From: an uncultured Opitutales bacterium
GTDB taxonomy: Bacteria > Verrucomicrobiota > Verrucomicrobiia > Opitutales > JABDGR01
Length of the DNA stretch: 64,000 nt
Reading direction: 5' to 3'
NCBI GenBank assembly: GCA_964562015.1
Contig: CAZLRH010000009.1
Span: forward strand, 83,557 to 147,556
Shown: one piece after another, positions 38,409 to 55,943 of the stretch
Position numbering within the stretch: position 1 is the stretch's first letter
Layout: each line of letters begins with the position of its first letter
Program-made: the position numbers and the translations under genes
The notes under the pieces: generated by a model
The model's database searches: none
Told to the model about the DNA's origin: nothing
What the model saw: only the letters and a program-made list of their open reading frames with translations

Positions 38409-39629
<1,221 letters not shown>

Positions 39630-39639
39630 TTCAAAACGA

Positions 39640-39712
39640 AACCGCAGTTGACGCGGGGGAGCGCAGATTTTTAAATCCGAAAATCTGTGTAAATCTGCGC
39701 CATCTGCGGTTA
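39640..39712. repeat. Inverted element with 9-nt periodic arms between gap and pgk
   Basis: The right arm ATCTGCGCCATCTGCGGTTA (39693-39712) is identical to 16945-16964; the left arm AACCGCAG..GCGCAGAT is degenerate. Confidence 0.75.
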
Positions 39713-39729
39713 ATTCTTATCTTCTTCTC

Positions 39730-40932
39730 ATGCCTCGCACCAAGACCGTTCACGACCTGAATCTCGCCGGCCAGCGCGTGTTTGTGCGCGTGGATTTCAA
39801 TGTCCCGCTCGACGAGCACGGCCACGTTTCCGACGACACTCGCATTGTCGAGTCGCTGCCCACCATTCGGCACCTGGTCAGCCAGGGGGCGAAGGTGATC
39901 TTGGCCAGCCACCTCGGGCGGCCCAAGGGTAAGCGCGATCCGAAACAGTCGCTCAAGCCCGTCGCGGCGATCTTGTCCAAGCACCTCGGTACGACGGTGG
40001 CCTTTGCGGACGACTGCGTCGGCCCAGTCGCGGAAGCCGCGGCGGCGGCGTTGAAAAACGGCGAGGTCCTGCTGCTCGAGAACGTGCGCTTTTACGCGGC
40101 CGAAGAAAAGAACGACGCCGCTTTTGCCCAGCAGTTGGCGAAACTCGCGGAAGTTTTTGTCAACGATGCCTTCGGCTCGGCCCACCGGGCCCATGCCTCG
40201 ACCGCCGGCATCGCGGCGCATCTGCCCGCGCGGGTCGCCGGTTTGCTCATGCAAAAAGAGTTGGCCTTCCTCGGCGATAAAACCGCCCAGCCGGTGCGGC
40301 CTTTCTGCGTCATCCTCGGCGGCGCCAAAGTCAGCGACAAAATCAAGGTCATCGACACCCTCCTCGACAAGGCGGACTCCATGCTCATCGGCGGCGCAAT
40401 GGCTTACACCTTCGGCCTCGCGCTGGGCAAGAAAGTCGGCAAGAGCCTCACCGAGCCCGACAAAATCGGCCTCGCCCAATCCGCTATCGACAAGGCCAAG
40501 GCCAAGGGCGTGAAGCTGCTCCTGCCGGTCGATAATCTGATTACCGACAAGCTGGATTTCGCCAACGCGCAGGTCGGCGCCACCCAAATCGTCGCCGGTG
40601 ACATTCCCGACGGCTGGGAAGGCGTGGACATCGGGCCCAAGACCATCGAGCTTTTCAATGCGGAAATCGCCCGGGCCAAGACCATCTTGTGGAACGGCCC
40701 GATGGGCGTGTTCGAAATCAAGGCCTGCAACCAAGGCACTTTCGCGGTGGCTGGCGCGGTCGCGGCCAACTCCGGCGCCATTTCCATCATTGGTGGCGGC
40801 GACTCCGTGAAGGCCGTCAAAAAGAGCGGCCAGGCTGGAAAAGTGACGTTCATCAGCACCGGCGGCGGCGCGAGCCTCGAGTTCCTCGAAGGCCAGGTGC
40901 TGCCCGGCGTGGCTTGTCTGGAAACTGTTTGA
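39730..40932 (+). CDS. pgk: Phosphoglycerate kinase
   Basis: RVDFNVP, SHLGRPKG, LLENVRF, NDAFGSAHRAHAS, GGAKVSDK, WNGPMGVFE, STGGGASLE. Confidence 0.97.
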   Translation: MPRTKTVHDLNLAGQRVFVRVDFNVPLDEHGHVSDDTRIVESLPTIRHLVSQGAKVILASHLGRPKGKRDPKQSLKPVAAILSKHLGTTVAFADDCVGPVAEAAAAALKNGEVLLLENVRFYAAEEKNDAAFAQQLAKLAEVFVNDAFGSAHRAHASTAGIAAHLPARVAGLLMQKELAFLGDKTAQPVRPFCVILGGAKVSDKIKVIDTLLDKADSMLIGGAMAYTFGLALGKKVGKSLTEPDKIGLAQSAIDKAKAKGVKLLLPVDNLITDKLDFANAQVGATQIVAGDIPDGWEGVDIGPKTIELFNAEIARAKTILWNGPMGVFEIKACNQGTFAVAGAVAANSGAISIIGGGDSVKAVKKSGQAGKVTFISTGGGASLEFLEGQVLPGVACLETV

Positions 40933-41001
40933 GTTTGGGCCGGCACTTGTGCTAGGGATGGCCTTCGCGCGCGGCCTTTTTCGCCGCGCCCGCCATTTCC
41001 C

Positions 41002-41790
41002 ATGTCCAAAAGCGTTCGCAAATTTCTCATCGCCGGCAACTGGAAGATGAACAAGACCGCCGCCGAAGCGGTGGACTTGATTCAGCAAATCGCCACCGAA
41101 GTAGGCAAGGAAACCGACGTCACCGTTGCCGTCTGCCCGCCCTTCACGGCGCTCGAAAGCGCGGCCCGCGCCCTCGAGAATTTCCAGGTCAAGCTTGGCG
41201 CGCAAAACCTGCACCCCGAGCCGTCGGGCGCCTTTACCGGCGAGATTTCCGCGCATATGCTGCGCACTCTTTTTGTCACCTACGTGATCCTCGGCCACAG
41301 TGAACGCCGCCAGTATTTTGCCGAGACGGACGCCTTCATCAACCGCAAGGTGCTCGCCGCGCTCGAAGCCAACCTCAGCCCCATTCTTTGCGTCGGTGAA
41401 ACGCTCGCCGAGCGCGAGGCCGGCAAGACGATGGACGTCGTGCGCCGCCAGCTCGAAGGCGGCCTGACCGGCGTCGGCGCCGTGCACGCTGAAAAACTCG
41501 TCATCGCCTATGAGCCCGTATGGGCCATCGGCACCGGCAAGACCGCGACGCCCGCCATGGCGCAGGAAGTCCATGGCGCCATCCGGTTGCTGCTGAACAG
41601 CCAGTTGGGCGCGGCCGGGGGTGCCAAGGTGCGTATTCTTTACGGAGGCTCCATGAAGCCCGACAATGCCGACGCGCTGATGGCCGAGGCGGACATCGAC
41701 GGCGGGCTCATCGGCGGAGCCTCGCTCGAAGCCAAGTCCTTCGTGAAAATCATCCAGGCCGCGCAGCACCATGCGAAGCGCCGGAATTAA
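41002..41790 (+). CDS. tpiA: Triosephosphate isomerase
   Basis: AGNWKMNK, GAFTGEIS, ILGHSERR, AYEPVWAIGTG, LYGGS, GGLIGGASL. Confidence 0.97.
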   Translation: MSKSVRKFLIAGNWKMNKTAAEAVDLIQQIATEVGKETDVTVAVCPPFTALESAARALENFQVKLGAQNLHPEPSGAFTGEISAHMLRTLFVTYVILGHSERRQYFAETDAFINRKVLAALEANLSPILCVGETLAEREAGKTMDVVRRQLEGGLTGVGAVHAEKLVIAYEPVWAIGTGKTATPAMAQEVHGAIRLLLNSQLGAAGGAKVRILYGGSMKPDNADALMAEADIDGGLIGGASLEAKSFVKIIQAAQHHAKRRN

Positions 41791-42336: not shown

Positions 42337-42927
42337 TCACAGAAATTTAATCAGCAACCCCCAGAAAACACAGCCGGCCACCGCCAGCGCGACCGCCAGC
42401 AGGCGCACCCGCCGGGCGAGTTCGCCACTTCCGCGCGCGGCCAGCGCGCCCGCCAGTTTTAGGACGAACCACGCGAGGGGCGGAAAAATAAACGACAGGC
42501 CGCACAGCGTGTACGCACGGCTCGCGAAGGCCGGGTCCGCTGGATTCGAGCCGAGAAATTCTGCCAGCACGGGCACCACGCCGGCCTGGCGTGGCCTGAC
42601 CGCTGACGACGAGGAAGAGGCTCCAGGGCGGGCGCTCGCCGGAAGGGTGGTGGTGTCGGCGGCGGCCTTTCCGTCCGCGGTGGTGTCAGCGATTCCTTCC
42701 GCTGTGGATGAGGCGGTGCCGTTCGAGGCCGCGCCGCTCAACAAATGTGCCCAGCGCCCGCCCTCGGCCTGTTGCAATAACTGCCGCAGGGGCACCGACC
42801 CTTGATCCGTTTCCACGCGATGCAGCAGGCTGATTTCACCGCGTTGGAGCAACTCCGCCAATTGCTCGACTGAGTACGGACCGTCGTGTCGCCCCTTCCA
42901 GGAAACGAAATAGGTGGAGGCGGGCAT
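42337..42927 (-). CDS. GYF_2 (DUF4339)-like domain protein with C-terminal TM hairpin
   Basis: YFVSWKGRHDGPYSVEQLAELLQRGEI pattern, low-complexity linker, and two hydrophobic C-terminal segments. Start ATG 42927. Confidence 0.75.
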   Translation of the reverse strand: MPASTYFVSWKGRHDGPYSVEQLAELLQRGEISLLHRVETDQGSVPLRQLLQQAEGGRWAHLLSGAASNGTASSTAEGIADTTADGKAAADTTTLPASARPGASSSSSAVRPRQAGVVPVLAEFLGSNPADPAFASRAYTLCGLSFIFPPLAWFVLKLAGALAARGSGELARRVRLLAVALAVAGCVFWGLLIKFL

Positions 42928-42932
42928 TGGAA

Positions 42933-43010
42933 GAAAGGCAGAAGGTAGAACGTAGAATGCAGAAAGCTGAACGCAGAAGTTAGAATGGAGAAAGTAGAAG
43001 TTGGAATTAC
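42933..43010. repeat. Degenerate heptamer tandem array (about 10-11 units) directly 5' of the GYF gene start codon
   Basis: AGAAGGT AGAACGT AGAATGC AGAAAGC TGAACGC AGAAGTT AGAATGG AGAAAGT AGAAGTT GGAATTA. Confidence 0.85.
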
Positions 43011-43080
43011 AGATTGAGCAATGCAAGCACGGGGTTGCCAGCCTGGTGCAACAGCAAATATTTTCAGGACTCGTTTCCCT

Positions 43081-45987
43081 TTACGGCGTCGCCGGAATAT
43101 CGCGCGAGAACAGCAGCGGGGTCAAGCGCGCGGGCGGGGCTGTCGGGGTGTTGCTGCCAGCGCCATAAAGCGGCCGCCAGTTTCCCGCGGTGTCCATGCC
43201 CCACAGCGGCCACGCGCCGGTGGGCGGGTTGACGATGACGGCCTTTTGGTCGAGGTCCACGAAGCCGGCGAATTGAAAGGTGGTGGCCCGCAAGGTGAGA
43301 AGTTTTTGCAGGTTCTGCGCCGCTTCGTCGTAATAACGGTGGCCCGCGGTGCGTGTGTAAAAGGCGGCCAGATCCGCGGCCAGGTGGGAACTCGCGGCGG
43401 GAAACAACCAGTCCGCCGGCTGCAATTTGCCGCCGGTGAGGCGGTCCAGCTCGGCGGCCTCCATTTGCGCGGTGGGCGAAAACGCCAGGCCCCAGTCGTT
43501 CGGGCGGTTCTTCGCGATGGCGATGATCTCCTGCTGCAAATACGCCTTGAGGATGGGCGAGGCGTCGGCATCGGCGCGCACATCATCCAGCACGCGCAGG
43601 AGCGGCTCGCGAATCGTGCCGGCGCGGGGCTCATAGGCCTGTTTCAGACGCGCCACCAGTTGCGACTCCGGCGTCATTTGCAGCCCGTCGAACAAATCGC
43701 CGCTGGGCGATTGGTTGTAATTTTTCCAAAGGACCTGGCGGATCGTGGTCGTGCCGTCCGGATTGATGATGCTGCCGGACTCGCGCACCAGGACATTATT
43801 ACCCGTCAAGGCTTCGTCCGAGCGCGTGATTTGCCCCGCCAAAAACACCGGCGTCGTCGCTGTCACGTTGCCATTTTCGTAATGCACGAGATTGGCGCGG
43901 TAGGTGTTCGCCAGGAGGTCGCTGATGACGCGGCGCGCGTACGCGAGGTCCTCGTTTTGCGCGCTGGCGGCGGGCTGGAGGCGGGTGTCTTTGACCGCGC
44001 CCAAGTACGTCCACTGGGCGGATTCGCCCGGCAGCAGGATGCGCTGCGCGAGGTTGTTCCAGTCAAATTTATCGCCCAGCAGGGCGTGGGCGGAAGCGAC
44101 CGCGGCGTCGCCCACGATGGGATTCGCCGCGAGGCGGTCGAGCGGCCCGCGATACTCCTCGAGCGAGTGGGCCTGGGGATACTGGCTTTCCGCCGCCAGC
44201 GCGTCACGGGCGGCGGCGTCGAGCACGTCGAGTTGGGTGGTGAACGCCATGATTTGCGCGCGGGCGTTTTCTTCGCCGGGCGACTCGTGGCCCGGATTGG
44301 GCGCAATGGCCCCGGCCTCCGCGAGGATGGCCCGCGCGGGCGCAATGGCCGCCGCCACGGTTTCCGCATTGGCCGTTGTCGGCAATTTTTCGGCAAAATA
44401 CTGGCCGAGGCGATTCGCAATTTCCGCCAACGTGGCCGCCCGTTGCTCCTGCACTTGCGCCAGTTGCTGCGTCCAGCGCGTGCGGCGGTCGGCCACGGCT
44501 GACTGGATTGGCGCGGCAGATTCGGCGTCCAGTTTGGCGGCGCGCTTCTCCATGTCCGCCAGCGCCGCCAGCCCCTCGGCGAGTTGCGCCGGGTTGGGGG
44601 CATGGGCGACGAGGGCATCGATGCGGGCGAAATCTTTTTGGAAACCGTCCTGCACGGAAGCCTGCGCGCCAACAAAGGTGCGCGCCCGCGCCAGCAACGG
44701 CGAGAGCGTGGGATCGTCGTTGAGGTCGGCGTAATGCGCGTCGAAATCCTTGAGCGCCTCGGCCAGGGGCGCATAGGCCTCATGCTGGAGTAATTCATCG
44801 AAGCGGTTGATTTGCGCCTCCCGCCGCTGTTGGCGAAAATGGCCCCACATCGCCAGGCCCACGACCAGCGCCACCACCGCCGCCGCCGCCAGGCCCAGCC
44901 CTACGCGGTGCAGGCGGCGCCGTTTGAGTTCGGCGCGCACGCGGGCGATTTGGTCGTCGAAGCGCGAGCGCAGCGGACCAGCGGGCGCGGCCCCCTTGGC
45001 CGCCATGGCGTCGATCCGCATCTGCAAGTCGTCCAATCGTGCAGCCACGGCGGCATCGGTTAACGGCCGCAGCGATTCTCCCGCGAGACGCTCAAGGTGC
45101 GCGGCCAGTTCGCGCTGGGCGTGTTGCTGCTCCTCGGCCCGGCGCTGTTCCGCGAGCAGGCCGGCGGACCAGGTGCGCACGGCGTCGGTCAAGCTTTCCG
45201 TTTCCGGCGCGAGGGTGAAGGAAAACTGGCTGCGCAAGGCGTCCCATTCGGCCAGCAAGGGCAGCGATTCGCTCCACTGCGCGGACTCCCGCAATTGGTG
45301 CAAGGCGCCCGCCAGTTCCTGGCAACGGGCGCGGGCGTTTTCGAACTGGTGTTGTTCGCGCACGACCACGGCGCGCTGCCACCCGGCATCCTGCTCGAGG
45401 GCGGCCCAGCCATCCGCTTCCAGTGATTCCATCAAGCCCAGCAGGCGCGCGGTGTCATTGCGCTCCAGCGCCACGGCCAGCTCGGCCAGCTTGTGTTCGG
45501 CCAGCTTGCGCGACAGGCGGGCCACCTCGGCATGAGCGTTGGCGTCCTCGGGGTTGACCCGCAAAATAGACTGCAAAACGCGCAGGGCCTGCTCCTCCTG
45601 CCGGGTGCGCATGGCCTGCCGGTAGTCCCGGTACAACGGATGGGATTCGCCAATAGTTTTTCCGTAAAGTTGATTGACGAGGTCCACCTGCCGCTCGTCG
45701 AACGGCGGGGCCACCGGCAGGCCGCGCCGCTGGCAGAAGGCCCGCCAGGCTTCGACTTCGGCAAACGACAATTGCCGGGCGACATCCAGCACCGGCGGGG
45801 GTGCCTCTGCAATTTGCAAGGCCTGGTAATCCTGCCCGCTGCGAATTAGCGGGACGATTTGCTCGATCCGGCGCGCCGCCGCCGCGCACGCTTCCACATA
45901 TTCAGCGGCAAGCGCGCGCTGCTCGAATTCCGAGGCGTAATCCTGCAACGCGGCGCGAATGCGGTTAAGGAGTCGATCCAGTTGCAT
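43081..45987 (-). CDS. Large helical/coiled-coil single-pass membrane protein of the GTPase/GAP1 operon
   Basis: Ala/Glu/Arg-rich helical N-terminus, TM (GLGLAAAAVVALVVGLAMWG) at about aa 365-385, long extracytoplasmic part; start overlaps the upstream gene's stop by 23 nt. Confidence 0.8.
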   Translation of the reverse strand: MQLDRLLNRIRAALQDYASEFEQRALAAEYVEACAAAARRIEQIVPLIRSGQDYQALQIAEAPPPVLDVARQLSFAEVEAWRAFCQRRGLPVAPPFDERQVDLVNQLYGKTIGESHPLYRDYRQAMRTRQEEQALRVLQSILRVNPEDANAHAEVARLSRKLAEHKLAELAVALERNDTARLLGLMESLEADGWAALEQDAGWQRAVVVREQHQFENARARCQELAGALHQLRESAQWSESLPLLAEWDALRSQFSFTLAPETESLTDAVRTWSAGLLAEQRRAEEQQHAQRELAAHLERLAGESLRPLTDAAVAARLDDLQMRIDAMAAKGAAPAGPLRSRFDDQIARVRAELKRRRLHRVGLGLAAAAVVALVVGLAMWGHFRQQRREAQINRFDELLQHEAYAPLAEALKDFDAHYADLNDDPTLSPLLARARTFVGAQASVQDGFQKDFARIDALVAHAPNPAQLAEGLAALADMEKRAAKLDAESAAPIQSAVADRRTRWTQQLAQVQEQRAATLAEIANRLGQYFAEKLPTTANAETVAAAIAPARAILAEAGAIAPNPGHESPGEENARAQIMAFTTQLDVLDAAARDALAAESQYPQAHSLEEYRGPLDRLAANPIVGDAAVASAHALLGDKFDWNNLAQRILLPGESAQWTYLGAVKDTRLQPAASAQNEDLAYARRVISDLLANTYRANLVHYENGNVTATTPVFLAGQITRSDEALTGNNVLVRESGSIINPDGTTTIRQVLWKNYNQSPSGDLFDGLQMTPESQLVARLKQAYEPRAGTIREPLLRVLDDVRADADASPILKAYLQQEIIAIAKNRPNDWGLAFSPTAQMEAAELDRLTGGKLQPADWLFPAASSHLAADLAAFYTRTAGHRYYDEAAQNLQKLLTLRATTFQFAGFVDLDQKAVIVNPPTGAWPLWGMDTAGNWRPLYGAGSNTPTAPPARLTPLLFSRDIPATP

Positions 45988-48493
45988 CGGCGGAGAATTC
46001 AATCAGGGGAGAAAGGTGGGCGGCGTCGGGGCCGTAAAGCAAGGCCCAGGGGGCGGTGGTGCGGGCCCAGTTGGGCTGGGTGGCGGCCAGGGCCTGGGCC
46101 TCGTCCTGTGTGATGGTGTTTTTTAATTTTTCCACAGCTAGGCGGGTTTGGTCAACATCAACGGGATCCGGTCGTTCGCCGACTGGATTGTCGCGCAACT
46201 GCTTTTCGAGGCTGGCAAGGGTCTCCTGTAGCTGGGCCAAATCCGTTTTTTCGCTGAGTGCGGCCTGGCGGCGCTGGTCGGCGAACCACGCGGGGGTGTA
46301 TCCGACGCTGGCAAGTTCAGTCGCCGGTTTCCCCGCGAGCGCCGCGAACCCCGCCGCCACTATGGTGCTGCGATTCGGCGGCAACAGCCAAAACGGCGCG
46401 GGCGCATGAATGGTTAATCCGCGGGCCAGCCACGCAGGGAGGGCGAGCCGGGTGGGTTCGTTTTGCGCAGCGAGCCAGGCCACCGGCAGGCGCAGGGGTT
46501 TCCACGTCGGCGCCCCGCCGGGCGGCAGGCGTAATAGCAAATAAACGGCCGGGCCGGAGTCACGGCTTAGCCGCACCCAAAAATGGTCGGTGCCCGCCCG
46601 CAACGCCGCATTGCCGGGATTTTGTTTGAAAAAATCACTCTCGGCGGTGAAGACCCGCCACGTCAAACGCACGGCACCCGGACCTTCGGCCAGCAATTGC
46701 AGGAAGCGGCCGCCGGAAGCTCCGCGCGAGGCATCCGGCAATACGATAAAATCGCCGGGCGAGAAATCCTCGCCGCGCAGGTCAAAATGAAACCACTGGT
46801 CGTCGGGCGGCAGGCTGAAATTGGCGGCGGTCACCGCCGCGGCGTGAATCGCCAGGGTGGGCGACTGGAGCAGCGCGGTGACTTCAGGTATTTTAAGCGT
46901 GCCGCTGAATTCCTGGTAGTCGGGGCCTGCGCCTGCGCTGGTGAGATGGTCCACGAGCCAGACCGGGGCGTTGGGCAATCGGGCGATAACGGCCAGTTCG
47001 CTGTCGATTCTGGACCACGCTTGCGTAAGGGCTGCGGCGTCGGGCAAAGGCCAGGTGGTGGGAAAATCACGCAAATCCGCCATCTGCGCGGCCAACGCCT
47101 GCCGGGCGGCGGCGTCCAAGGGCCCGGCCTCGAGGCGCGCCGTGATTTCCTGCAGTTGATTTTGCCAGTCCTTTTGCGCGCCGGGCAAAAGGGTTGAGCG
47201 GAAATAGTCTTCATGCACCTGCGCGAGCTCCGGCGAAGAGACGACCAGGGTCTTCCATAATCCGAGGGCTTTATAAAATTGGCCATCCCGCGCCAGATTT
47301 TGAAGATCGATAAACTGCTGCTGATTGGCGATGGCAGTCGTCGCGGAACTGAGGGTGGTCGCGGGCGAGGGCGGTTGTTGATTCGGCACGCTGGCCGAAG
47401 GTTTGGTCGGGGCCGTAACTGTCACTGTTTCCGGCGGGGGCGGCGCCGGAGTGGGTGCTGCCGGCACCAGCCACATCCACAGAAGTACCCCCACGCCTCC
47501 GGCCAACAACACCCCGAGGCCAATCACCAATCCATTCACCTTTTTATCCACGGTCGTCTTGGACGCCGTCGTGTTTGTAACAGGCGGTGCGGGCAGCGCC
47601 GCCGCCGGTGGCGCGGCTGGCGGAGTTTTCGCGAGGGGCAATGATGGGGTTGAAGTTGTCGCAGCGACCGGCGTGCGCGGACGGGGAGGGGCGGCGCCCG
47701 CGGCGTCACCTTGTCGCGCGCGGCGTGAAACCGCATTCGCGGGTGGAGCCGGCAATAGGGAAAGCTGGGTGAGGTCGAGCATCTCTATGGGCCGCGTGGT
47801 CGCGCCTTCGGCCGGCAAGTCTTTGCGTTGCGCGGCCCAGCAGAAATCTGTCGCACTGTCGGAGCTTTGGAGCGCGGTGACAAACTCGGTGCGCCACGCC
47901 TCGGAGTTATCCATCAACGCCGAGGATTCGCGGAAAAGAGGCAGCAAAAGATTTTCTTGCGCGGAGGTGCAGCGCACCAAGCGCCGGGCGGGTCGCACGC
48001 CTTCGAGCAGGAGGGCGGCGTGGCCGGCATCGCCGGTAAGATTCTGCCAGGTCCGCGCCGGCAACGCGGGCTGCGGGGCGGGCGGCAGTTGCTGCAAGTC
48101 CACCAAGGCGGCGTCGTCCAGCCAGCGAGGCTCAGCGTCCCAGCGATTGAGCCAGCCGGGCCAGCGCAGAAAAATATCCGCCGGCGTCGGCAACCCGGCA
48201 ATTTCCGCCGGTTCCAGCAACAAATGATGCGCTAGAAAATTGGTGCGGCGGGTATAATCGTGGCCGGCGTCCACCAGCCGTGACAACAGCGGAAAGCGCT
48301 GGCCCGCGAGTTCCAGCAAGCGGAATGAGCAAATCACCGGCGCGGGCTGCCAGCCGTGCGGATACACGCTCAGGCCCTCAATCATCGGCACCAGCCTTTC
48401 GCGCAAATCGCCGTGCCGCGCCACCGTGCAAAAGCCTGTGCGGCCGGGCGTCAACCCCTGCGGGGCGCTGGTAAACACAAGTTGCCGGGCCAT
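45965..48493 (-). CDS. GAP1-N2/GAP1-M-like domain protein with Pro-rich linker, TM helix and extracytoplasmic domain
   Basis: N-terminus QLVFTSAPQGLTPGRTGFCTVA..YTRRTNFLAHHLLL..W matches the GAP1-N2 pattern as I recall it; TWQNLTGDAGHA..W..F.T resembles GAP1-M; TM at about aa 322-344. Confidence 0.75.
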   Translation of the reverse strand: MARQLVFTSAPQGLTPGRTGFCTVARHGDLRERLVPMIEGLSVYPHGWQPAPVICSFRLLELAGQRFPLLSRLVDAGHDYTRRTNFLAHHLLLEPAEIAGLPTPADIFLRWPGWLNRWDAEPRWLDDAALVDLQQLPPAPQPALPARTWQNLTGDAGHAALLLEGVRPARRLVRCTSAQENLLLPLFRESSALMDNSEAWRTEFVTALQSSDSATDFCWAAQRKDLPAEGATTRPIEMLDLTQLSLLPAPPANAVSRRARQGDAAGAAPPRPRTPVAATTSTPSLPLAKTPPAAPPAAALPAPPVTNTTASKTTVDKKVNGLVIGLGVLLAGGVGVLLWMWLVPAAPTPAPPPPETVTVTAPTKPSASVPNQQPPSPATTLSSATTAIANQQQFIDLQNLARDGQFYKALGLWKTLVVSSPELAQVHEDYFRSTLLPGAQKDWQNQLQEITARLEAGPLDAAARQALAAQMADLRDFPTTWPLPDAAALTQAWSRIDSELAVIARLPNAPVWLVDHLTSAGAGPDYQEFSGTLKIPEVTALLQSPTLAIHAAAVTAANFSLPPDDQWFHFDLRGEDFSPGDFIVLPDASRGASGGRFLQLLAEGPGAVRLTWRVFTAESDFFKQNPGNAALRAGTDHFWVRLSRDSGPAVYLLLRLPPGGAPTWKPLRLPVAWLAAQNEPTRLALPAWLARGLTIHAPAPFWLLPPNRSTIVAAGFAALAGKPATELASVGYTPAWFADQRRQAALSEKTDLAQLQETLASLEKQLRDNPVGERPDPVDVDQTRLAVEKLKNTITQDEAQALAATQPNWARTTAPWALLYGPDAAHLSPLIEFSADATGSTP

Positions 48494-48534
48494 GGAAGAT
48501 TCGCGGATCGCAGTAAAAATTCAGGAAGCCAAAT

Positions 48535-50967
48535 TCAAGCCTTGGTCGGCGAGCCCGCCACGGTTGCCGGGGCCGGCGTCACGTGCACCACCACGGTTCC
48601 GCGGATGTCATCTGAGGCTGCGCCGACGCGCAATTCGTACGCGCCCGGGTTCACAATATAGCTGTGTGTGGTCGCGTCCCACCGCCGCAAAACTTCGGCC
48701 CGAATTTTCAAATTCACGGTCACTTGCTGGCCCTTCGCAAGGGCGACGCGTTGAAAGGCGCAGAGGCGCTCGCGGGGCAGGTTAGGCGCGGTGGAGTCGG
48801 CTTCATGCGCATAAATTTGCACGACTTCCTCGCCGTCACGCTCACCCGTGTTGGCCACGTCCACCGTCACTTCGATGGTTTCCGTCGCTCCGACACTTTC
48901 CTGGCCGAGCTTCACCGCGCCGTACTTGAACTGGGTAAAGCTCAGGCCATGACCAAAGGCAAATTCGGGCTTCCCGGAAAAATAGCGGTAAGTACGGTTG
49001 GACATGCTGTAATTTTCGAACGCCGGCAAGTCTGCCGTGCCACGGTAAAAGGTGATGGGCAGGCGGCCGGCGGGATTGTAGTCGCCAAAGAGCACATCGG
49101 CCACCGCGGTGCCGCCGTTTTCGCCGGGATACCAGGCCTGCAAAATGGCCGGGAGATTGTCGGCCTCCCAGCGCATGGCCATGGCGCTGCCACTGCAATT
49201 CACGAAAATGACGGGCTTGCCCAGCGCCTGCAGGGCCTGGAGCAACTCCGTCTGCACCGCCGGCAATTCGATGCGGGTACGGTCGCCGCCGGAAAAACCG
49301 TCGACATCGATGCTCATTTCTTCGCCCTCCAGTTGCGCGGTGATACCGCCGACAAAAATCACCGCATCGGCCTGGCGCGCGAGGTCGAGGGCAACCGCCG
49401 GATCCGGTGCCGCGATATTGGCGTTCCGATTTCGTGCGCCATAATAGCCCGTAACCAGCGGGCACCCCGGCGCATAGGTGACCTCGATGCCGGTGATATT
49501 CGCGGCGTTGCGGATGCCTTGCAAAATGGTGATGGGATGCGAGGGCGTGCCGTTGTAATTGCCCAGCAGCATCGTCAGTGAATCCGCATTGGGGCCGATG
49601 ACCGCGAGGCGCTTGACTTTCGTGCGGTCAAGTGGCAGCACGCCCGCGTTTTTCAACAGGACCATCGATTCGCGGGCGGCCTGGAGCGCGAGGGCGGAAT
49701 GCGCGGGCGTATCCACATCCGCGAGGCTGAGTTTCGCAAATGGCACTTTTTCCGGTGGGTCGAACAAGCCCAATTGAAAGCGCCCCGCCAGCACGCGATG
49801 CAGCGCGAGGTTGATGTCGGCTTCACTGACCAAACCTTGTTGCGCCGCGGCGATGAGATAGTTGAAGGTGCGCCCGCAGTTGAGGTCGTCGCCCGCTTTG
49901 AGCGCGACGGCCGCGGCCTCGGCGGGCGTGGCCACCAGCAGGTGGGTTTGGAAAATGTCCGCCACGGCGTCGCAGTCCGACACGACATAGCCCTTAAACC
50001 CCCACTGATTGCGCAAAATCTGCGTGAGCAGCAGGGGGCTACCGGTGGCCGAGGCGCCGTACACGCGGTTGTACGCACTCATCACGCAGCCGACGTTCGC
50101 CTCGCGCACCGCCGCCTCGAAATGCGGCAGGTAGTTGTCGAAAAAATCCGTTTCCGTCGGTTCCACGTCCACCTCGTGGCGCGTGGATTCCGGTCCGCTG
50201 TGCACGGCAAAATGTTTGGCGCAGGCCAGCGCCTTCACGTAATTCGGATCGTCGCCCTGCAAGCCCTCGATGAAAGCCACGCCCATGCGCGCCGTCAAAA
50301 AAGTATCCTCGCCGTAAGTCTCCTGGCCCCGGCCCCAGCGCGGATCGCGAAAGAGATTGATGTTCGGCGTCCAGAAAGTGAGGCCGAAATAGCGGGCGCT
50401 GCCGCCGTAGGTGGCGAAATAGTCGTTGTACTTGCCGCGCGCTTCGGTGGCGATGGTGTCGGCGACGGTCTGGACCAGCGGCGTGTCCCACGTCGCCGCG
50501 AGTCCGATGGTTTGCGGGAAAACCGTGGCCACGCCCGCCCGCGCCACCCCGTGCAGCGCCTCGTTCCAATAATCATAGGCGGGCAAATTCAGCCGGCGAA
50601 TCGAAATCGCACCATTGAGCAGCTGGCTCACTTTTTCCCGGAGAGACATCCGGGCGATCAAATCATCCACGCGTTCATCCCGCGGCTTGGAGGGGTCGGT
50701 GTAAATCACCGGCGTGGTCACATTCGGAATCGCATCCACTTCGACCGGCCCGGGCAGCGCGGGGGCCTCCAGTGCGCCATACACCAAACCTGGCGCATGC
50801 CAAACCGGCAGCGCCTCCCACGAGGCGAAACGCATAAAACCGCCAAGGGGCTTGGCGCTGGCGGAGGGCGCGGCGGGGACGTTGCAACCGCAATCGCTGT
50901 CCTCCACCACGTCCGCGCGGGCCAGCACGGCGAGGAGGGCGGCGGCCAGGATGGCGGGAAATTTCAT
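48535..50967 (-). CDS. Secreted GH3 beta-glucosidase/xylosidase with a C-terminal Fn3-like domain
   Basis: Signal peptide MKFPAILAAALLAVLARA; WNEALHGVAR, TVFPQTIG, NINLFRDPRWGRGQETYGED, KHFAVH, VVSDC (nucleophile Asp), EGEE, YPGENGG, GEEVVQIY. Confidence 0.93.
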   Translation of the reverse strand: MKFPAILAAALLAVLARADVVEDSDCGCNVPAAPSASAKPLGGFMRFASWEALPVWHAPGLVYGALEAPALPGPVEVDAIPNVTTPVIYTDPSKPRDERVDDLIARMSLREKVSQLLNGAISIRRLNLPAYDYWNEALHGVARAGVATVFPQTIGLAATWDTPLVQTVADTIATEARGKYNDYFATYGGSARYFGLTFWTPNINLFRDPRWGRGQETYGEDTFLTARMGVAFIEGLQGDDPNYVKALACAKHFAVHSGPESTRHEVDVEPTETDFFDNYLPHFEAAVREANVGCVMSAYNRVYGASATGSPLLLTQILRNQWGFKGYVVSDCDAVADIFQTHLLVATPAEAAAVALKAGDDLNCGRTFNYLIAAAQQGLVSEADINLALHRVLAGRFQLGLFDPPEKVPFAKLSLADVDTPAHSALALQAARESMVLLKNAGVLPLDRTKVKRLAVIGPNADSLTMLLGNYNGTPSHPITILQGIRNAANITGIEVTYAPGCPLVTGYYGARNRNANIAAPDPAVALDLARQADAVIFVGGITAQLEGEEMSIDVDGFSGGDRTRIELPAVQTELLQALQALGKPVIFVNCSGSAMAMRWEADNLPAILQAWYPGENGGTAVADVLFGDYNPAGRLPITFYRGTADLPAFENYSMSNRTYRYFSGKPEFAFGHGLSFTQFKYGAVKLGQESVGATETIEVTVDVANTGERDGEEVVQIYAHEADSTAPNLPRERLCAFQRVALAKGQQVTVNLKIRAEVLRRWDATTHSYIVNPGAYELRVGAASDDIRGTVVVHVTPAPATVAGSPTKA

Positions 50968-50990
50968 GGCAGGGATTCGACCGGCTTGGC

Positions 50991-52838
50991 TCACGCCCGG
51001 CCGGACGCTGGCACCAAATGGGGCGCCAGCTTGGAAAGCGCCCACAGCGTCGGGATTTCGATCTGGATGGGAAGAATCTGGCGCGGATCGGGGGCGAGAA
51101 ACCCCGCGGCCGGGCCGGTTTCAATGTGTGCGGGCGAATGGCCAAAGGCACTGACCGGAAAATAGCGCACATGGTGCGCCAGGCCCTCGGCGTGGGCGAC
51201 AATCACCGGGTCCACCTTGATCATGAATTCGCGCAGCCGCTCCGAATTCGCATCCACGATGGCATGGTCAAGCCGGCCGTCATGCAGCGGGGACTTGAAC
51301 GCCGGCCAGTCCACCAAATGCTTCCACACGTCGCACTTGCCGATGAGCATCGCGAGCGGGGTCTCGATTTTGCGGCCCGGTTCGAGCACGAGCAGGCGCT
51401 TCACGCGCATTTCCATCTCGGCCAGGATGCTGTCCTGCTGGTCCAGCCGCGTTTGCTGCGAGATTTGCGGGTCGCTCGAATCGGTCAGGATGGAGCGAAA
51501 GCCGAAATTCGAGGTCGGGTCGAACAGGAAGAAGATGGCGGCGGAGCTGGCCACGTGCAGCGCCCCTGGCGAATCGTCGAGGTCCACGCCCGGCTCGAAA
51601 TGCTCGCCCGCGTTGTCGTAAAAAATGACGGAACAATCCGCGCCTTGGGCGGCCTCGTCCGCGGCGGCCTCCTCGGCGGCGGCAAATTCCCGGTGTGCGG
51701 CGTGGCCCAGGGTGTAAATGAAGGGGCGGGGCAGGGCCACCATCTTGCCATAACGCGGAAACCGCTCGTACATCGCGCCCTCGAGCGCGGTTTTCGCCAG
51801 CACGGCGTCCTGCGGCTTCGAGGCCGAGAACAACCGGCTTTTCATTTGGTTGAGCAGCATGTTGCCCGTCGGGTCGCCGTCCTTCAGCACCAATCCGAAT
51901 TCCCGGTAGAGCGCGTGCTGGAGCGTGCGCAGGAGAATGGCCAGGTAATAGGACTTGCCCGCGCTGGGCGCGCCCACAATGGAAAAAATGTGATGGGGAA
52001 TATCCAGAAATCCCGGTGGAAGCTTGCGGCGGCAATGCGGGCAGGCCAGGTCCGCCGAGGGCATCCCCATCGGGTCGATGGCCTGGCCGAGATCGTTGAA
52101 GCGCGTCGGAAAAAACCGCAGGCGGGCGTCTTCGCCGAGCACCGGGTCGCCGCGCAGGCTGTCGTGGGCCGCGATGTTCATGGCGTCGCCAATGTCAAAC
52201 TTCTGCCAGCACACCGGGCACGTCAGCGCGCCGTGCGTGCCGTCCAGCGTCACGGCTTCGGACGGCGTGGCGGGCGGCGGCTTTATCTCGACGCCGAGCA
52301 CGCCGAAAACCTGCGTCAGGTAAAATCCCGCGTTCAGGCCCAGCGGAGCGGCGGCGAACTGCGCCGGGTTCAACCCGCGCTGTTGGATGAAGCCCGGCAC
52401 GTCGCGAAATCGCGTGACGCCGACCGTCTCGCCATTATCCAGCCGGTAAATGCGCCAGTCGTCGGCTTGCACTTTGGCCAACGCTTGTTCGGCTTCGTCG
52501 CCGGCCGCGAGCGCCACCAGGTCGCGGCCAATTTGCAACGACGCCAAGCCGGCCGCGGGCAAGTCCGTCGCGACCGTCAGGGCCTGCCCATTGAGATAGG
52601 CGATGCCCGGTGATTCCGGCGTCACGCGAAAACCATTGGGCGTCGTATCGACGAGACAGCCGGCTTCGCCCGGCGCGAGGCTTAGGGCCGTCCAGGCGGA
52701 ATCAGCGCCATGGCCCAGCCGGCAGGGAAATTTGCCCAATTCACTTTGCTGCCCGCGCAAACAATCAAGCAAAACCAGATGCGGACGCCCCAGCGACTTC
52801 TTGGCCAGCGAGAGCAGGTTGGGCAGGGGCAGGGACAT
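50991..52838 (-). CDS. TRAFAC-class GTPase (DO-GTPase2-like) with N-terminal FHA-like and GYF-like domains and a Zn ribbon
   Basis: CPVC...CPHC; Walker A GAPSAGKS; G3 DNAGEHF; FLFDP; G4 GKCD; C-terminal YFPVSAFG. Start placed at ATG 52838. Confidence 0.8.
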   Translation of the reverse strand: MSLPLPNLLSLAKKSLGRPHLVLLDCLRGQQSELGKFPCRLGHGADSAWTALSLAPGEAGCLVDTTPNGFRVTPESPGIAYLNGQALTVATDLPAAGLASLQIGRDLVALAAGDEAEQALAKVQADDWRIYRLDNGETVGVTRFRDVPGFIQQRGLNPAQFAAAPLGLNAGFYLTQVFGVLGVEIKPPPATPSEAVTLDGTHGALTCPVCWQKFDIGDAMNIAAHDSLRGDPVLGEDARLRFFPTRFNDLGQAIDPMGMPSADLACPHCRRKLPPGFLDIPHHIFSIVGAPSAGKSYYLAILLRTLQHALYREFGLVLKDGDPTGNMLLNQMKSRLFSASKPQDAVLAKTALEGAMYERFPRYGKMVALPRPFIYTLGHAAHREFAAAEEAAADEAAQGADCSVIFYDNAGEHFEPGVDLDDSPGALHVASSAAIFFLFDPTSNFGFRSILTDSSDPQISQQTRLDQQDSILAEMEMRVKRLLVLEPGRKIETPLAMLIGKCDVWKHLVDWPAFKSPLHDGRLDHAIVDANSERLREFMIKVDPVIVAHAEGLAHHVRYFPVSAFGHSPAHIETGPAAGFLAPDPRQILPIQIEIPTLWALSKLAPHLVPASGRA

Positions 52839-53020
52839 GACTGGGTAACGGGCGCGAGCGTGGGTGGGGAACAAGGCGCGACGCGGCCCTCATTGTCCCG
52901 CAATCCCCGTAGGTTTGCCAATCCTGAAAAATCACCCGGTGTGGCCGTCCCTTGAACCGCAAATAGCGGTGGACAAACCGGCCCGGCCCGCGAACACTGG
53001 CCCCCGGAAAATTTTTCTGC

Positions 53021-53419
53021 ATGGATCCCGACGAACAACAAATCCGCGACCTGATTGATGCTTGGATGCAGGCTTCCCAGGCCGGCGACGCCGACCGCCT
53101 GCACGGCATGATGGCGGAAGATGTCGTATTCCTCCGGCCCGGCCTGCCGCCGATGCGGGGTCGCGCGGCCTTTGTGGCGGGTTTCCGGAACGCGATGGAT
53201 CACGTCCGCCTCGAACTGCTTTCGAACATCCAGGAAATCACCCTTTCAGGCGACCTCGCCTTTTGCTGGAATCAGTTGAACGTGACCGCCATTCCCCGGC
53301 GCGGCGGACCCGCCATGCGCCATTCCGGCAACGTGCTCTCCATGTTGCGCAAGCTGCCTGAGGGCAACTGGGTCATCGCCCGCGATGCCAACATGCTCAT
53401 CCCCGAAGCGATGCAATAA
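53021..53419 (+). CDS. NTF2-like SnoaL/DUF4440 (SgcJ/EcaC-like) protein
   Basis: DEQQIRDLIDAWMQASQAGD..EDVVFL..PMRGR..GNVLSMLRK..GNWVIARD. Confidence 0.85.
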   Translation: MDPDEQQIRDLIDAWMQASQAGDADRLHGMMAEDVVFLRPGLPPMRGRAAFVAGFRNAMDHVRLELLSNIQEITLSGDLAFCWNQLNVTAIPRRGGPAMRHSGNVLSMLRKLPEGNWVIARDANMLIPEAMQ

Positions 53420-53434
53420 ACCGAAGAGCGGGTT

Positions 53435-54682
53435 CTAGCTCGCCTTGCCGACTACGATAACATCGAGGAAGGAAGGCCCGTTGTTGCCACCGCCGCCACG
53501 GCGGCCACCGCCTGCGCGGGCGCCTGCCGGAGGAGCGCCTGCACCGGGAGCCGCCGCCACGCTGGCCGGAGCACCTGCTGAAGTCGTGGCCGGAGCTGCC
53601 GCTGCCGCCGGAGCGGGAGTTGCTGCCGCGGTGGTTGCGGGAGGCGTGGCGGCCGGGGCCGCTTCCGTGGTGATGACGATGACGTGACCGGTCTTCGCAT
53701 CGAGCGTGCAGGTCTTTGCGCCCTGCTGGGTCGTCACGGTCGGCTCCAAGGCAAAACTCGTCGGGCTGTTTTCCTTGATGATGGAAAGGGTGCCGTTGCC
53801 GTGGGAGCTAAAGGCTTCCATGGTGGCCGGATTGAAAACCGCGCCATCGCTGCTGCCGGCGAGCGGTAGGGTGGTGATGATTTTGCCGTCCGTGGCGCTG
53901 AGAATCACGCACGTCGGCCCGCCGCTGCCCGCGGAACCGCGGCACATGGCAAACAGAATGTGATTTTTGTTATCCAAGGCCAGGCCCGCTGCCCCGCCGC
54001 CCGACGGACCGAGGTCGTAGTGCCCCGTGACCTTGAGGGTCTTGGCATCCACCACGGCGATGCAGCCTTGGTCCTCGACGTCGAAATAAAGATGGCCTTG
54101 GCCATCCGAAGCTCCCTGCTCGATGGCGCCATTGGTGTCGTCTTTGCCGAGTTTGTCCACCGTGCCGACAATGGAGCCGTCCTTCGAATCGATGACCAGC
54201 AAGTTAGGCGCGCGGTGGCTGAGAATGAAGAAATGATGTGTCGCGGCGTCGAACAAGATGCCGTCGGCGCCGGGCGCGGGAATGGTTTTGATCTGTGCCA
54301 GCGTTTCGATATTCCACATCACCGCCGGGTCGCCCGAGCAAATGCCCGTTTTGTTTTCCGGGTCCACCACCGCGCCGTGCGCGCGCGCGTTGGAGATGTT
54401 ACCCACGGCTTTCAGTGTATCGAGATCGTAGATGCCGACCTCAGTGCCGCGCGGGACGTAAAGACGCCGGTTCGCGCTGTCCGCGAAAACGTAATCGAGG
54501 CCGCCGGTGCCCATGAACTGGGCCTTGTTGACTACTTTATAAGTGGCGGGGCCGGTGGGGGCGGCGGGAGCAGCCGCCGGAGTGGCGGGGGCGGGTTGGG
54601 CAAAAATCGTCGTGGCTGGGAGCATGGCTCCAACTACCAGCAACGCGCGCAAAACAGGAGAAGAGGTATTCATCGTGCGCAC
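53435..54682 (-). CDS. Secreted YncE/YVTN-type beta-propeller protein
   Basis: Signal peptide; GGLDYVFAD..RRLYVPRG, GADGILFD, LYFDVED, TQQGAKTCTLD; Ala/Pro-rich loop before the last strand. Confidence 0.8.
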   Translation of the reverse strand: MRTMNTSSPVLRALLVVGAMLPATTIFAQPAPATPAAAPAAPTGPATYKVVNKAQFMGTGGLDYVFADSANRRLYVPRGTEVGIYDLDTLKAVGNISNARAHGAVVDPENKTGICSGDPAVMWNIETLAQIKTIPAPGADGILFDAATHHFFILSHRAPNLLVIDSKDGSIVGTVDKLGKDDTNGAIEQGASDGQGHLYFDVEDQGCIAVVDAKTLKVTGHYDLGPSGGGAAGLALDNKNHILFAMCRGSAGSGGPTCVILSATDGKIITTLPLAGSSDGAVFNPATMEAFSSHGNGTLSIIKENSPTSFALEPTVTTQQGAKTCTLDAKTGHVIVITTEAAPAATPPATTAAATPAPAAAAAPATTSAGAPASVAAAPGAGAPPAGARAGGGRRGGGGNNGPSFLDVIVVGKAS

Positions 54683-54802
54683 GTTGTAGCAGGCCCACCA
54701 TTACCTCAAGATTATGCGTTCGTGACGCTCAATGAAGATATATTTCATCGCCGTTATGGTATTTATCCACCCACCATCAAGTATGATCACGGTCCAGTCG
54801 CC

Positions 54803-55324
54803 TTAATCACGAGCATGTTTTTCCAGCAACCCCTCAATCAACTCCGCCAGGGGCTGAAAGTTTTCCGCGAGCCGGAGTATAATCTTCACACTTTCCTCCG
54901 GGCTGGCTTTGACCCAGCCTTGCATAAGGGTTTGCGGGCCGAAATCCGTCCGCACCTTGGGCCAGTGTTTCTTGTAGGGGCGAAAGCCCGCGCGAAAAGC
55001 CGCCGCAAACTTTCGGCTCTCCAACGCATAGCCTTCCAATTGCCGCAATTTCAGCGCGTGGATGTTGTAATGCATCCGGCCCGCTGCGGCAAATTGCTCA
55101 TCGACCCACACGGAAAAGAAAAGGCCGGAGGCATTGCGCACTGCGGCGGTCGGGTCGTTACTCCAATGCGCCCGCCGCAATTTAAACACGACGCATTCCG
55201 GTTTCGCATGGCTCGGCGACCAGCCCGTCTTACACACCCAATCGTCCGCGAACCACGGCTCATATCGGATACGCGCTTGGGCTTGCGCAAAGGGCCGGAA
55301 ATAGCAATTGAACAAGGGCGTCAT
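54803..55324 (-). CDS. Hypothetical protein
   Basis: 173-aa non-repetitive ORF (FFSVWVDE, HYNIHALKLRQL, FGPQTLMQGW); no function recognised. Confidence 0.6.
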   Translation of the reverse strand: MTPLFNCYFRPFAQAQARIRYEPWFADDWVCKTGWSPSHAKPECVVFKLRRAHWSNDPTAAVRNASGLFFSVWVDEQFAAAGRMHYNIHALKLRQLEGYALESRKFAAAFRAGFRPYKKHWPKVRTDFGPQTLMQGWVKASPEESVKIILRLAENFQPLAELIEGLLEKHARD

Positions 55325-55411
55325 GGGTAATCACACGCAGCGAATCAGCATCATATTAACGCGTGAGGGACGCGAGGCATCTTGCCCCGATGCCATGGTG
55401 GCCTTCAACCC

Positions 55412-55943
55412 TTACTTTGTGGTGGCCGTGCCGTCCGGCTGCGCCAGTCGAGCGAGCTCCGCGCGGGCGAGTTGGTATTCATCATAAGTTTGTTTGCCGG
55501 TCCCGACGCACTTTTGAAAATAATCCCGGGCGGCGGTTTGCTCATGCTTGGCCAGACACAGCATGCCGAGATGGTAATAGGCTTCGCAGGTTTGGCCTTG
55601 GACCGTCAAGGAGTCGCCCGTTTCCGCCGCTTGCAGGAGCGTGGCGGCGTCAATCTCGCCCGCCAAATACCGGCCCAGGGTCTTGTTCCAGCCATCCTTC
55701 CACGTCGCGACCTGCGCGCCAAAGCCGGGCGACGCCGGCTCCGTCCAAGTCGTTGGCCTGGAGCTTGCGACCGCCGCTGGCCACGAGTTGGTCGGCCGTG
55801 GAAGCCGCAGCGGCCTGCAGGATGTCGTCCGTCGTTTGGGCGGCGCAGATATCCGGCTGCGAGACGGCGAACGCGATCAGAAAAAGGCCAAGGAGCCAGG
55901 GCGATCTGCCGACCCAAGGAAGAAGCTTTTTGAGCATGTCCAT
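55412..55943 (-). pseudogene. Disrupted TPR/NlpI-like protein (internal deletion with frameshift)
   Basis: Frame A gives a signal peptide and the start of a TPR (ASGGRKLQANDLDGA). Frame B, offset by 1 nt, gives WKDGWNKTLGRYLAGEIDAATLL..CEAYYHLGM..ARDYFQKCV.TG..YDEYQLARAEL, the typical C-terminal cap. No TPR array lies between them. Confidence 0.7.

Follow-up and report, generated by a model that had tools for sequence, protein, structure and literature searches.

A clade-wide DO-GTPase/GAP1 gene cassette of Opitutae and its possible role as an envelope-sensing switch

Positions 42337-52838 of a 64,000-nucleotide stretch of an uncultured Opitutales genome (contig CAZLRH010000009.1; the whole stretch is called the window below) carry five co-oriented minus-strand open reading frames (ORFs), which encode, in the order of transcription, a GTPase (G1), a family 3 glycoside hydrolase (GH3), a GAP1 protein (G3), a large helical membrane protein (G4), and a small GYF-type membrane protein (G5). 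The locus raises the question of whether such an operon serves defence, as its family membership would suggest, or senses the state of the cell envelope, as was supposed in an earlier note on this DNA. We found that G1, G3, G4, and G5 form a fixed four-gene cassette, and we give an even chance to the reading that this cassette is an envelope-sensing switch, which would be a clade-wide, vertically inherited Opitutae-type variant of the GAP1-N2-type DO-GTPase systems. The five genes and their tight spacing are as the earlier note described them: G1 and GH3 are separated by 23 nucleotides (nt) and GH3 and G3 by 41 nt, G3 and G4 overlap by 23 nt, and 153 nt lie between G4 and G5. Start codons were set from the N-termini of orthologues and the upstream context. 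The genes and their parts, with lengths in amino acids (aa), transmembrane (TM) helices as predicted and models from AlphaFold2 (AF2), are as follows.

50991-52838, minus strand: G1, a 615-aa cytoplasmic GTPase; the ATG start matches orthologue N-termini
52503-52781, minus strand: FHA-fold beta-sandwich of G1, residues ~20-112 (AF2 and Foldseek)
Residues 124-181 of G1, minus strand: small alpha/beta domain (AF2)
52023-52226, minus strand: Cys4 Zn ribbon of G1 with a 55-aa insert, residues 205-272 (invariant Cys)
51009-51995, minus strand: TRAFAC GTPase domain of G1, DO-GTPase2 type, residues 282-610 (GAPSAGKS, DNAGE, and GKCD motifs)
48535-50967, minus strand: GH3, a beta-xylosidase/beta-glucosidase-like glycoside hydrolase; ATG start followed by the signal peptide MKFPAILAAALLAVLARA
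45965-48493, minus strand: G3, an 842-aa single-pass GAP1 protein
48119-48493, minus strand: GAP1-N2 domain of G3, residues 1-125 (Pfam)
47789-48061, minus strand: conserved region of G3 at the position expected for GAP1-M, residues ~145-235 (conservation profile)
47453-47542, minus strand: TM helix of G3, residues ~318-347, after a Pro-rich linker
45968-47452, minus strand: fast-evolving ectodomain of G3, 495 aa (TM prediction and conservation profile)
43081-45987, minus strand: G4, a 968-aa single-pass protein of an unnamed family
45508-45987, minus strand: conserved N-terminal ~160 aa of G4, within a helical cytoplasmic part of ~357 aa
44833-44916, minus strand: TM helix of G4, residues ~358-385
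43084-44832, minus strand: ectodomain of G4, ~580 aa; helical apart from a five-strand beta-meander (residues 695-771) and small strands at the C-terminus
42337-42927, minus strand: G5, 196 aa, with an N-terminal GYF_2 domain, a low-complexity linker, and two C-terminal TM helices
~42763-42912, minus strand: GYF_2 domain of G5 (Pfam, 18.5-19 bits, below the cut-off of 25.8)
42340-42516, minus strand: TM helices of G5, RDD-like in some orthologues

A scan at one genome per species gave 585 matching stretches, the best 80 of which were taken as relatives; these 80 all belong to the Verrucomicrobiota (labels Opitutales, Opitutia, Puniceicoccales, and Coraliomargarita). The cassette survey covered 86 loci, including the window and a few near-duplicates, with hidden Markov models (HMMs) built from the window and two orthologues. 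G1, G3, G4, and G5 are complete and in this order, with median gaps of 1-3 nt (1 nt between G1 and G3 in the relatives), in 58 of the 86 loci, all verrucomicrobial, which amounts to 58 of the 61 untruncated ones; among the other 28 loci, 25 are interrupted by contig ends and three truly lack parts. Relatives at 70% and 45% G1 identity encode the GTPase, the GAP1-N2 protein, a protein of ~920-980 aa, and a protein of 138-155 aa, all four orthologous to those of the window, and have no GH3; the same four-gene block is present in distant G4 relatives. The co-occurrence of these genes in other genomes, which the earlier note had proposed to survey, was thus borne out for four of its five genes, GH3 being left out. 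The three eroded cassettes all come from metagenome-assembled genomes (MAGs) of termite-gut Puniceicoccales: L008 retains G1 and G3, and L013 and L067 retain G1 only, which suggests that the cassette is dispensable in at least some host-associated lineages.

The mode of inheritance of the cassette was examined by comparing its proteins with one another and with the extracytoplasmic function (ECF) sigma factor that adjoins it in most loci. Pairwise identities of this sigma factor, of the N-terminal parts of G3 and G4, and of the C-terminal part of G4 correlate with those of G1 at r=0.96, 0.93, 0.92, and 0.91, respectively. Mean pairwise identity is 0.61-0.66 for G1, 0.59 for the sigma factor, and 0.23 for the C-terminal part of G4, so that the GTPase is at least as conserved as the neighbouring sigma factor. 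Measured against the window in 82 sequences, the Zn ribbon with its insert and the GTPase core are the most conserved (62-76% identity), the GAP1-N2 domain, the GYF domain, and residues 1-160 of G4 are also well conserved, and the ectodomains of G3 and G4 are the least conserved (5-28%), the TM positions of both proteins being conserved family-wide. Within one abundant gut-Opitutales population the four proteins are 98.6-99.3% identical, without any hypervariable patch. The flanking genes are housekeeping genes in every lineage examined, the GC content at third codon positions (GC3) is host-like, and searches of plasmids, phages, and IMG/VR returned no relatives of it. Taken together, the co-inheritance, the housekeeping flanks, and the lack of relatives on mobile elements point to a vertically inherited chromosomal module and not to a diversifying mobile defence island. 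None of the five window proteins matched PADLOC-DB 2.0 at E<=0.1, NCBIfam has no name for any of the four cassette proteins, and neither Pfam nor PADLOC revealed an effector or nuclease domain in the window proteins or the scanned orthologues, in agreement with the earlier note, which had seen no nuclease or other cytoplasmic effector. As a separate observation, L088 has a Gp49 (HigB-like) gene with a small partner just downstream of its cassette (18229-18923), a probable toxin-antitoxin pair with no equivalent in the window. Two organism assignments call for comment. The abundance of the 574-aa gut orthologues L001-L003 had suggested Akkermansia, which was rejected, since they are 88% identical to those of Ca. 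Merdousia and Puniceicoccaceae Marseille-Q1082 and their locus has a GC content of 48%. L044 bears the title Akkermansia muciniphila isolate HRS-HS9-bin-183; its cassette is of the lake-Opitutae type and its GC content 62%, so this label is probably wrong.

GH3 stands apart from this block. Its family label is secure, with strong Pfam matches to the C-terminal (PF01915, 1.6e-56), N-terminal (PF00933, 4e-47), and Fn3-like (PF14310, 2.2e-16) domains; among NCBIfam models xylosidase Xyl3A fits it best (878 bits, under the equivalog cut-off), and its GC3 of 0.77 is host-like. The window is alone among the surveyed loci in having more than 200 nt between G1 and G3, the insertion there being 2.5 kb, and all other complete cassettes are without GH3, those of relatives at 69-72% G1 identity among them; in the closest ones the spacer is 102 nt (L087, 71% G1 identity), 73 nt (L088, 69%), and 16 nt (L004, 70%). 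Thus, judged by this distribution, GH3 is a lineage-specific insertion into the G1-G3 spacer and not a conserved part of the cassette, and its listing as a partner gene of the system in the earlier note is not upheld. In a scan for terminators the count was at chance level and no terminator-like site lay at the gene junctions, hence GH3 is probably co-transcribed with the cassette, as a passenger.

The first gene of the cassette encodes a cytoplasmic P-loop GTPase in which the guanine-nucleotide motifs are intact, the N-terminus has an FHA fold, and a Cys4 Zn ribbon is present. DO-GTPase2 is its best Pfam family; at 21.5 bits the window protein stays under the gathering score of 27, although 34 of 35 orthologues match the family at E<=0.05 (best 7e-6), which suggests a divergent subfamily. 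The P-loop GAPSAGKS (G289..G294-K295), the Walker-B motif DNAGE (D408-N-A-G-E412), the GKCD motif (G500-K501-x-D503), and four Cys (CPxC...CPHC) are invariant in these 35 orthologues, and the Walker-B Glu by whose conservation DO-GTPases are defined is present as E412. The four Cys (C207-P-x-C210 and C266-P-H-C269) would make one Zn site split by the conserved 55-aa insert, and not two complete ribbons. This insert, which reads WxKFDxGDxxxIAxHxSLRxDxxLGxDxxLRFxPTxF..., is among the most conserved segments of the whole cassette, has no family matches, and may serve to bind a partner; the AF2 model of G1 (mean predicted local distance difference test, pLDDT, 81) is poor in the ribbon region and falls below 50 at residues 226-243. 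Foldseek searches against the PDB aligned the GTPase domain with EF-Tu/EF1a, atlastin, G-alpha, and YcjX, and the N-terminus with the FHA domains of GarA and OdhI (TM-score 0.71-0.78, root-mean-square deviation 2.5-3.4 over ~100 residues), pLDDT exceeding 90 across residues 20-112. A profile search of PDB sequences with G1 gave nothing at E<=1, and the 35 orthologues showed no match to Pfam FHA anywhere or to Pfam GYF in the middle domain (residues 124-181). The earlier label of G1, FHA/GYF-like-Zn-ribbon-GTPase, therefore stands for the GTPase and FHA folds and for the ribbon; its GYF-like part found no support, hhalign of the middle domain with the G5 GYF alignment having reached a probability of 15% only (P=0.0018, 18 columns).

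G3 carries the GAP1-N2 domain (PF20013; 70.1 bits in the window against a cut-off of 24), which is matched by 66 of 66 orthologues, followed by one TM helix, as the earlier note had labelled it. GAP1-M is not matched in the window G3, and five of the 66 orthologues show weak sub-threshold matches (best 20.7 against 24 bits, residues ~170-233) in the region where a conserved block (P145, W149, W200, F204-T-T, W219) occupies the GAP1-M position. Pfam scans of the window G3 and five orthologues gave only GAP1-N2 and weak GAP1-M, and GAP1-C was not found; the middle region is followed by a linker, the TM helix, and an unrelated ectodomain. This ectodomain varies in length from ~30 to ~900 residues across orthologues around a fixed TM position, and that of the window has only three detectable homologues. 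Short G3 proteins (338-344 aa, ~30-residue ectodomain) occur in L015, L018, and L042, and long ones (~1250 aa, ~900-residue ectodomain) in L026, L031, L033, L047, and others; in the long-G3 loci, G5 is a GYF_2+RDD protein of ~370 aa, and there is no adjacent sigma factor. Docking of GYF domains on a Pro-rich juxtamembrane linker of G3 was considered and became less likely, since the linker has 22% Pro in the window and L004 and only 2-15% in most orthologues.

G4 matches the earlier description as a helical TM protein of ~970 aa: its 968 residues are almost all helical in the AF2 model (mean pLDDT 86), residues 1-690 being followed by the beta-meander and more helices, and it has one TM helix. 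It belongs to no Pfam or NCBIfam family, and a fold search of the PDB gave no significant match (best E 4e-3, TM-scores <0.2, generic TPR/helical repeats); NTF2-like and hot-dog-like matches to the beta-meander were weak and not significant and were discarded. At 50% identity the G4 family falls into 2324 clusters, of which most are full length and 914 have E<=1e-30, and G4 is the third cassette gene in every case. The distant G4 relative P0185 (locus L086), from a record labelled Chloroflexi bacterium, is a full-length protein of 27% identity whose gene is followed by one for a TM2-domain protein in place of the GYF-TM gene and then by MotA/ExbB; the contig is short, and the Chloroflexi label may be a binning error. 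In G5, GYF_2 is sub-threshold in the window and is matched by 19 of 52 orthologues at E<=0.01 (best 1.6e-13), in agreement with its earlier GYF_2-TM label, and RDD is matched by 9 of 52. Its two TM helices are closely spaced in the window, with practically no ectodomain, and orthologues have 2-3 such helices at the C-terminus. Thus, of the three membrane-anchored partners to which large extracytoplasmic parts had been ascribed, all have TM helices, but only G3 and G4 have large ectodomains.

DO-GTPase/GAP1 systems were defined computationally, and proposed to be conflict systems, by Kaur, Burroughs, Iyer & Aravind (eLife 2020; PMC7159879). According to that survey, the GAP1-N2 type occurs in planctomycetes and verrucomicrobiae and usually has one GTPase component with N-terminal Zn ribbons, paired GTPases being found in only 38% of these systems overall, which removes the single GTPase from the features that the earlier note had taken as distinctive. 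The same study describes GAP1 proteins often with C-terminal TM helices, membrane proximity, and GYF-plus-TM partners in planctomycetes, lists a fibronectin type III (FNIII) repeat component, GAP1-M, GAP1-C, variable effectors, and tubulin/HSP70/kinase themes, and proposes a variable non-enzymatic module as the sensor (PMC7159879). Membership of the window cassette in this family is confirmed by the Pfam profiles cited above (GAP1-N2 in 66 of 66 and DO-GTPase2 in 34 of 35 orthologues). It shares with the published GAP1-N2 systems the TRAFAC GTPase that has a Glu in Walker B and a Zn ribbon at its N-terminus, the single GTPase as the common state, the GAP1-N2 gene directly 3' of the GTPase gene (in all relatives; in the window GH3 lies between), the fusion of GAP1 to a C-terminal TM segment, the GYF-plus-TM partner, membrane proximity, and the occurrence in verrucomicrobia. 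In contrast to them, it lacks GAP1-C, variable effectors, and the tubulin/HSP70/kinase themes; no fn3 match was found in G3, G4, G5, or the scanned orthologues, the sole Fn3-like domain being that of the inserted GH3. It differs further in the single Cys4 ribbon with its 55-aa insert, where two ribbons are usual, in the FHA-fold N-terminus of G1, which the text of that paper does not mention, in having G4, a protein outside any Pfam family, as a constant third component, and in a gene content that is fixed, vertically inherited, and in synteny with an ECF sigma/anti-sigma pair. The main text of PMC7159879 contains neither the word 'sigma' nor 'ECF', and the text of the supplement lists no Opitutus, Coraliomargarita, or Akkermansia. 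Because TM-fused GAP1, GYF-TM partners, membrane proximity, and verrucomicrobiae are already in PMC7159879, the earlier term 'undescribed variant' has to be limited to the remaining features. What is new here is a clade-wide, effector-less, fixed four-gene variant, marked by ECF-sigma synteny, the G4 family, and a GTPase whose N-terminus has an FHA fold.

The sigma factor gene and its partner were overlooked in the earlier note. In the window they and the cassette promoter are located as follows.

59790-60386, plus strand: ECF sigma factor (Pfam Sigma70_r2, Sigma70_r4, Sigma70_ECF; NCBIfam sigma70-ECF, 105 bits)
60386-61345, plus strand: putative single-pass anti-sigma factor, overlapping the stop codon of the sigma gene with its start and co-transcribed with that gene
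52892-52921, minus strand: promoter-like site of the cassette, TTGGCA-N18-GACAAT, preceded by TTTTCAGGA (consensus scan); the block can be written TTTTCAGGATTGGCA-N18-GACAAT

Clustering of the flanking ORFs yielded one family present in 53 loci, an ECF sigma factor gene that is divergent and just 5' of G1 and is followed by a gene for a small single-pass protein. By HMM, an orthologous sigma gene is immediately upstream and divergent in 52 loci (53 with L074) of the 71 that have enough upstream DNA; it adjoins the cassette also in L087, L089, and the P0186 contig. The best NCBIfam models for the sigma factor are SigW/RpoE, below their equivalog cut-offs. The translated anti-sigma candidate shows an anti-sigma-like helix at its N-terminus, one TM helix (residues ~150-170), and an ectodomain of low complexity; the equivalent gene of L001 has a weak zf-HC2 match, and L087 and L088 have a gene at the same position. 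From this distribution, the divergent neighbour that the cassette had ancestrally is the predicted ECF sigma/anti-sigma pair. In the window, the sigma factor, the putative anti-sigma factor, and a tandem-Usp protein form one plus-strand block (59790-62274); this block adjoins G1 in L087, is separated from it by a 3.1-kb insert in L088, and lies 6.9 kb away in the window. In the window, 180 nt separate G1 from the divergent SnoaL-like gene upstream of it (53021-53419, plus strand). The stretch 53021-59700 contains, besides this gene, an unassigned ORF pair (53435-54682, minus strand, and 53960-55330, plus strand), a fatty-acid desaturase (56027-57037, minus strand), a DEAD-box helicase (57318-58790, plus strand), and a 194-aa ORF; in L088 the corresponding insert carries NicO genes and one for an amine oxidase instead, and the sigma-G1 spacer seems to be an insertion hotspot. 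The promoter-like block is conserved 5' of G1 in the window, L087, L088, and L004, irrespective of the upstream gene, and was not found in more distant loci.

These data agree with the envelope-associated reading of the earlier note, as opposed to classical defence, in that gene order is fixed, the genes are co-inherited, and there is no strain-level diversification; its idea of envelope sensing is plausible. The link to the envelope is supported by the single-pass topology, the steep fall of conservation from the cytoplasmic parts to the ectodomains, the ECF sigma/anti-sigma adjacency, and the structural kinship of G1 with YcjX. We propose that G3 and G4 would tether G1 at the cytoplasmic face of the inner membrane via GAP1-N2 and the G4 N-terminus, and that their periplasmic domains would report the envelope state or an extracellular ligand. 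The signal would alter GTP loading or hydrolysis by G1, which would thereby act as a timed switch, and G5 would be a membrane GYF adaptor. The most likely output would be an envelope-stress or homeostasis response, perhaps via the ECF sigma/anti-sigma pair as the best candidate; killing of the infected cell would be a less likely output. The lack of an effector, the slowly evolving GTPase, and the ancestral ECF sigma neighbour together recast this branch of the family as a probable envelope-sensing switch.

Several observations weigh against the envelope-sensing switch. The cassette has no output domain and shows no sign of contact with the anti-sigma factor. Adjacency of the sigma gene is lost in the window (6.9 kb), in L004, and in the long-G3 (~1250 aa) loci, so that the linkage could be inherited synteny only. 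Moreover, the cassette promoter looks sigma-70-like and not ECF-like, and a search of the sigma-G1 intergenic regions for an ECF-type promoter (GAAC-N15-18-CGT) and for shared k-mers found none, the enriched k-mers having been discarded as coming from closely related lake MAGs. The ectodomain of G3 is only ~30 aa long in some lineages and thus cannot be a universal sensor. Canonical FHA domains bind phosphothreonine through Gly-Arg, Ser-x-x-His, and Asn-Gly residues; the FHA fold of G1 is without the canonical Arg, Ser, and His, and only N83-G84 is conserved. The taxonomic range rests on the best 80 of 585 loci, the literature searched yielded no experimental study of any DO-GTPase/GAP1 member, and the family was first proposed as a conflict system (PMC7159879).

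A further, far-reaching reading, which we hold to be somewhat unlikely, is that the cassette is a domesticated, Opitutae-wide transmembrane signalling device, in which a DO-GTPase/GAP1 switch gated by two single-pass sensors would control the ECF sigma/anti-sigma pair or be its dedicated effector arm. If so, this would be GTPase-timed envelope-stress signalling, which has not been described in bacteria, and a part of the 'NTP-dependent conflict system' family (NTP, nucleoside triphosphate) would be housekeeping signalling and not immunity. Known systems of the RpoE-RseA and SigW-RsiW type resemble the cassette in its ancestral neighbour, an ECF sigma factor with a co-transcribed single-pass anti-sigma factor, to which the cassette adds two more single-pass proteins with periplasmic domains; unlike them, it has no linked protease of the DegS/RseP/PrsW type and no ECF-type promoter in front of it. 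We know of no case in which a GTPase regulates an ECF sigma factor. Operons that join a membrane sensor, accessory proteins, and a GTPase switch, as the cassette does, are represented by the Streptomyces conservons CvnA-D and by MglA/MglB, but their GTPases are Ras/MglA-like and unrelated to DO-GTPases, and the cassette is without Roadblock/LC7 and histidine-kinase-like parts. YcjX/YcjF, a stress GTPase and membrane protein of Gammaproteobacteria, resemble the cassette in that the GTPase is large, atypical, and Ras-like and acts together with membrane protein(s), and the YcjX-GDPCP structure (PDB 6NZ5) gave the longest Foldseek alignment with G1 (521 columns, E 4.8e-4). However, no similarity of YcjX to G1 was found at the sequence level (PDB profile search, E<=1), YcjX has no FHA fold, Zn ribbon, or GAP1 partner, and YcjF is a multi-pass membrane protein, unlike the single-pass G3 and G4.

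A true conflict system, of the anti-phage or abortive-infection kind, would use the ectodomains of G3 and G4 to sense an invader, and the GTPase would license membrane damage by G4 or by G5, which is RDD-like in some orthologues. The GAP1-N2 systems to which the cassette belongs have been read as conflict systems with a variable sensor module (PMC7159879), the G3 and G4 ectodomains diverge fast between species (mean identity of the C-terminal part of G4, 0.23; three homologues of the G3 ectodomain), and the TM-rich G5 could in principle perturb membranes; however, gene content and order are constant in 58 loci and in very divergent relatives, the context is one of housekeeping genes with co-inheritance of the sigma factor and no strain-level diversification, and neither an effector domain nor a PADLOC match nor any relative on plasmids, phages, or viral contigs was found, which makes this explanation unlikely.

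We consider it just as improbable that the cassette is a constitutive machine of envelope biogenesis or architecture, with the GTPase driving the assembly of a membrane scaffold (for the wall, the outer membrane, or division-site placement) with no signalling role or tie to the sigma factor. This would suit the core-like vertical distribution, the slow evolution of the GTPase, the very long helical, TPR-like G4 with a scaffold on both sides of the membrane, and the conserved sigma-70-like promoter of the cassette. It is at odds with the absence of cell-wall, division, or Lol/Bam/Lpt neighbours in any lineage examined, with the loss of most of the cassette in the three termite-gut Puniceicoccales MAGs, which speaks against essentiality, and with ectodomains too variable for a conserved enzymatic or structural partner. 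That all five genes form one unit, in which periplasmic GH3 would free a sugar from xylan or beta-glucan for sensing by the G3 and G4 ectodomains and thereby regulate polysaccharide use, would fit the short junctions (23 and 41 nt, no terminator-like site) and the signal peptide, which places GH3 in the compartment of the ectodomains, but is very improbable given that no other complete cassette has GH3 (even at 69-72% G1 identity) and that no other carbohydrate-active enzyme, transporter, or regulator gene is linked in any locus.

The envelope-sensing switch would bear on a family that has so far been described in one computational survey. All told, several hundred verrucomicrobial species probably have the module, which is present in the 80 genomes examined; carriers include abundant human-gut Opitutales and the cultured Puniceicoccaceae Marseille-Q1082. 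G4 represents a large new protein family with neither a Pfam model nor a fold relative in the PDB, and the cassette offers a simple, constant system for the biochemistry of the DO-GTPase/GAP1 pair.

At its downstream end, the cassette of the window faces the convergent glycolytic cluster gap-pgk-tpiA (38481-41790, plus strand). A minus-strand ORF of 713 aa at 39631-41772 overlaps pgk and tpiA in this high-GC genome and has no family match; since the glycolytic genes occupy the plus strand of that stretch, it is best regarded as a shadow ORF.

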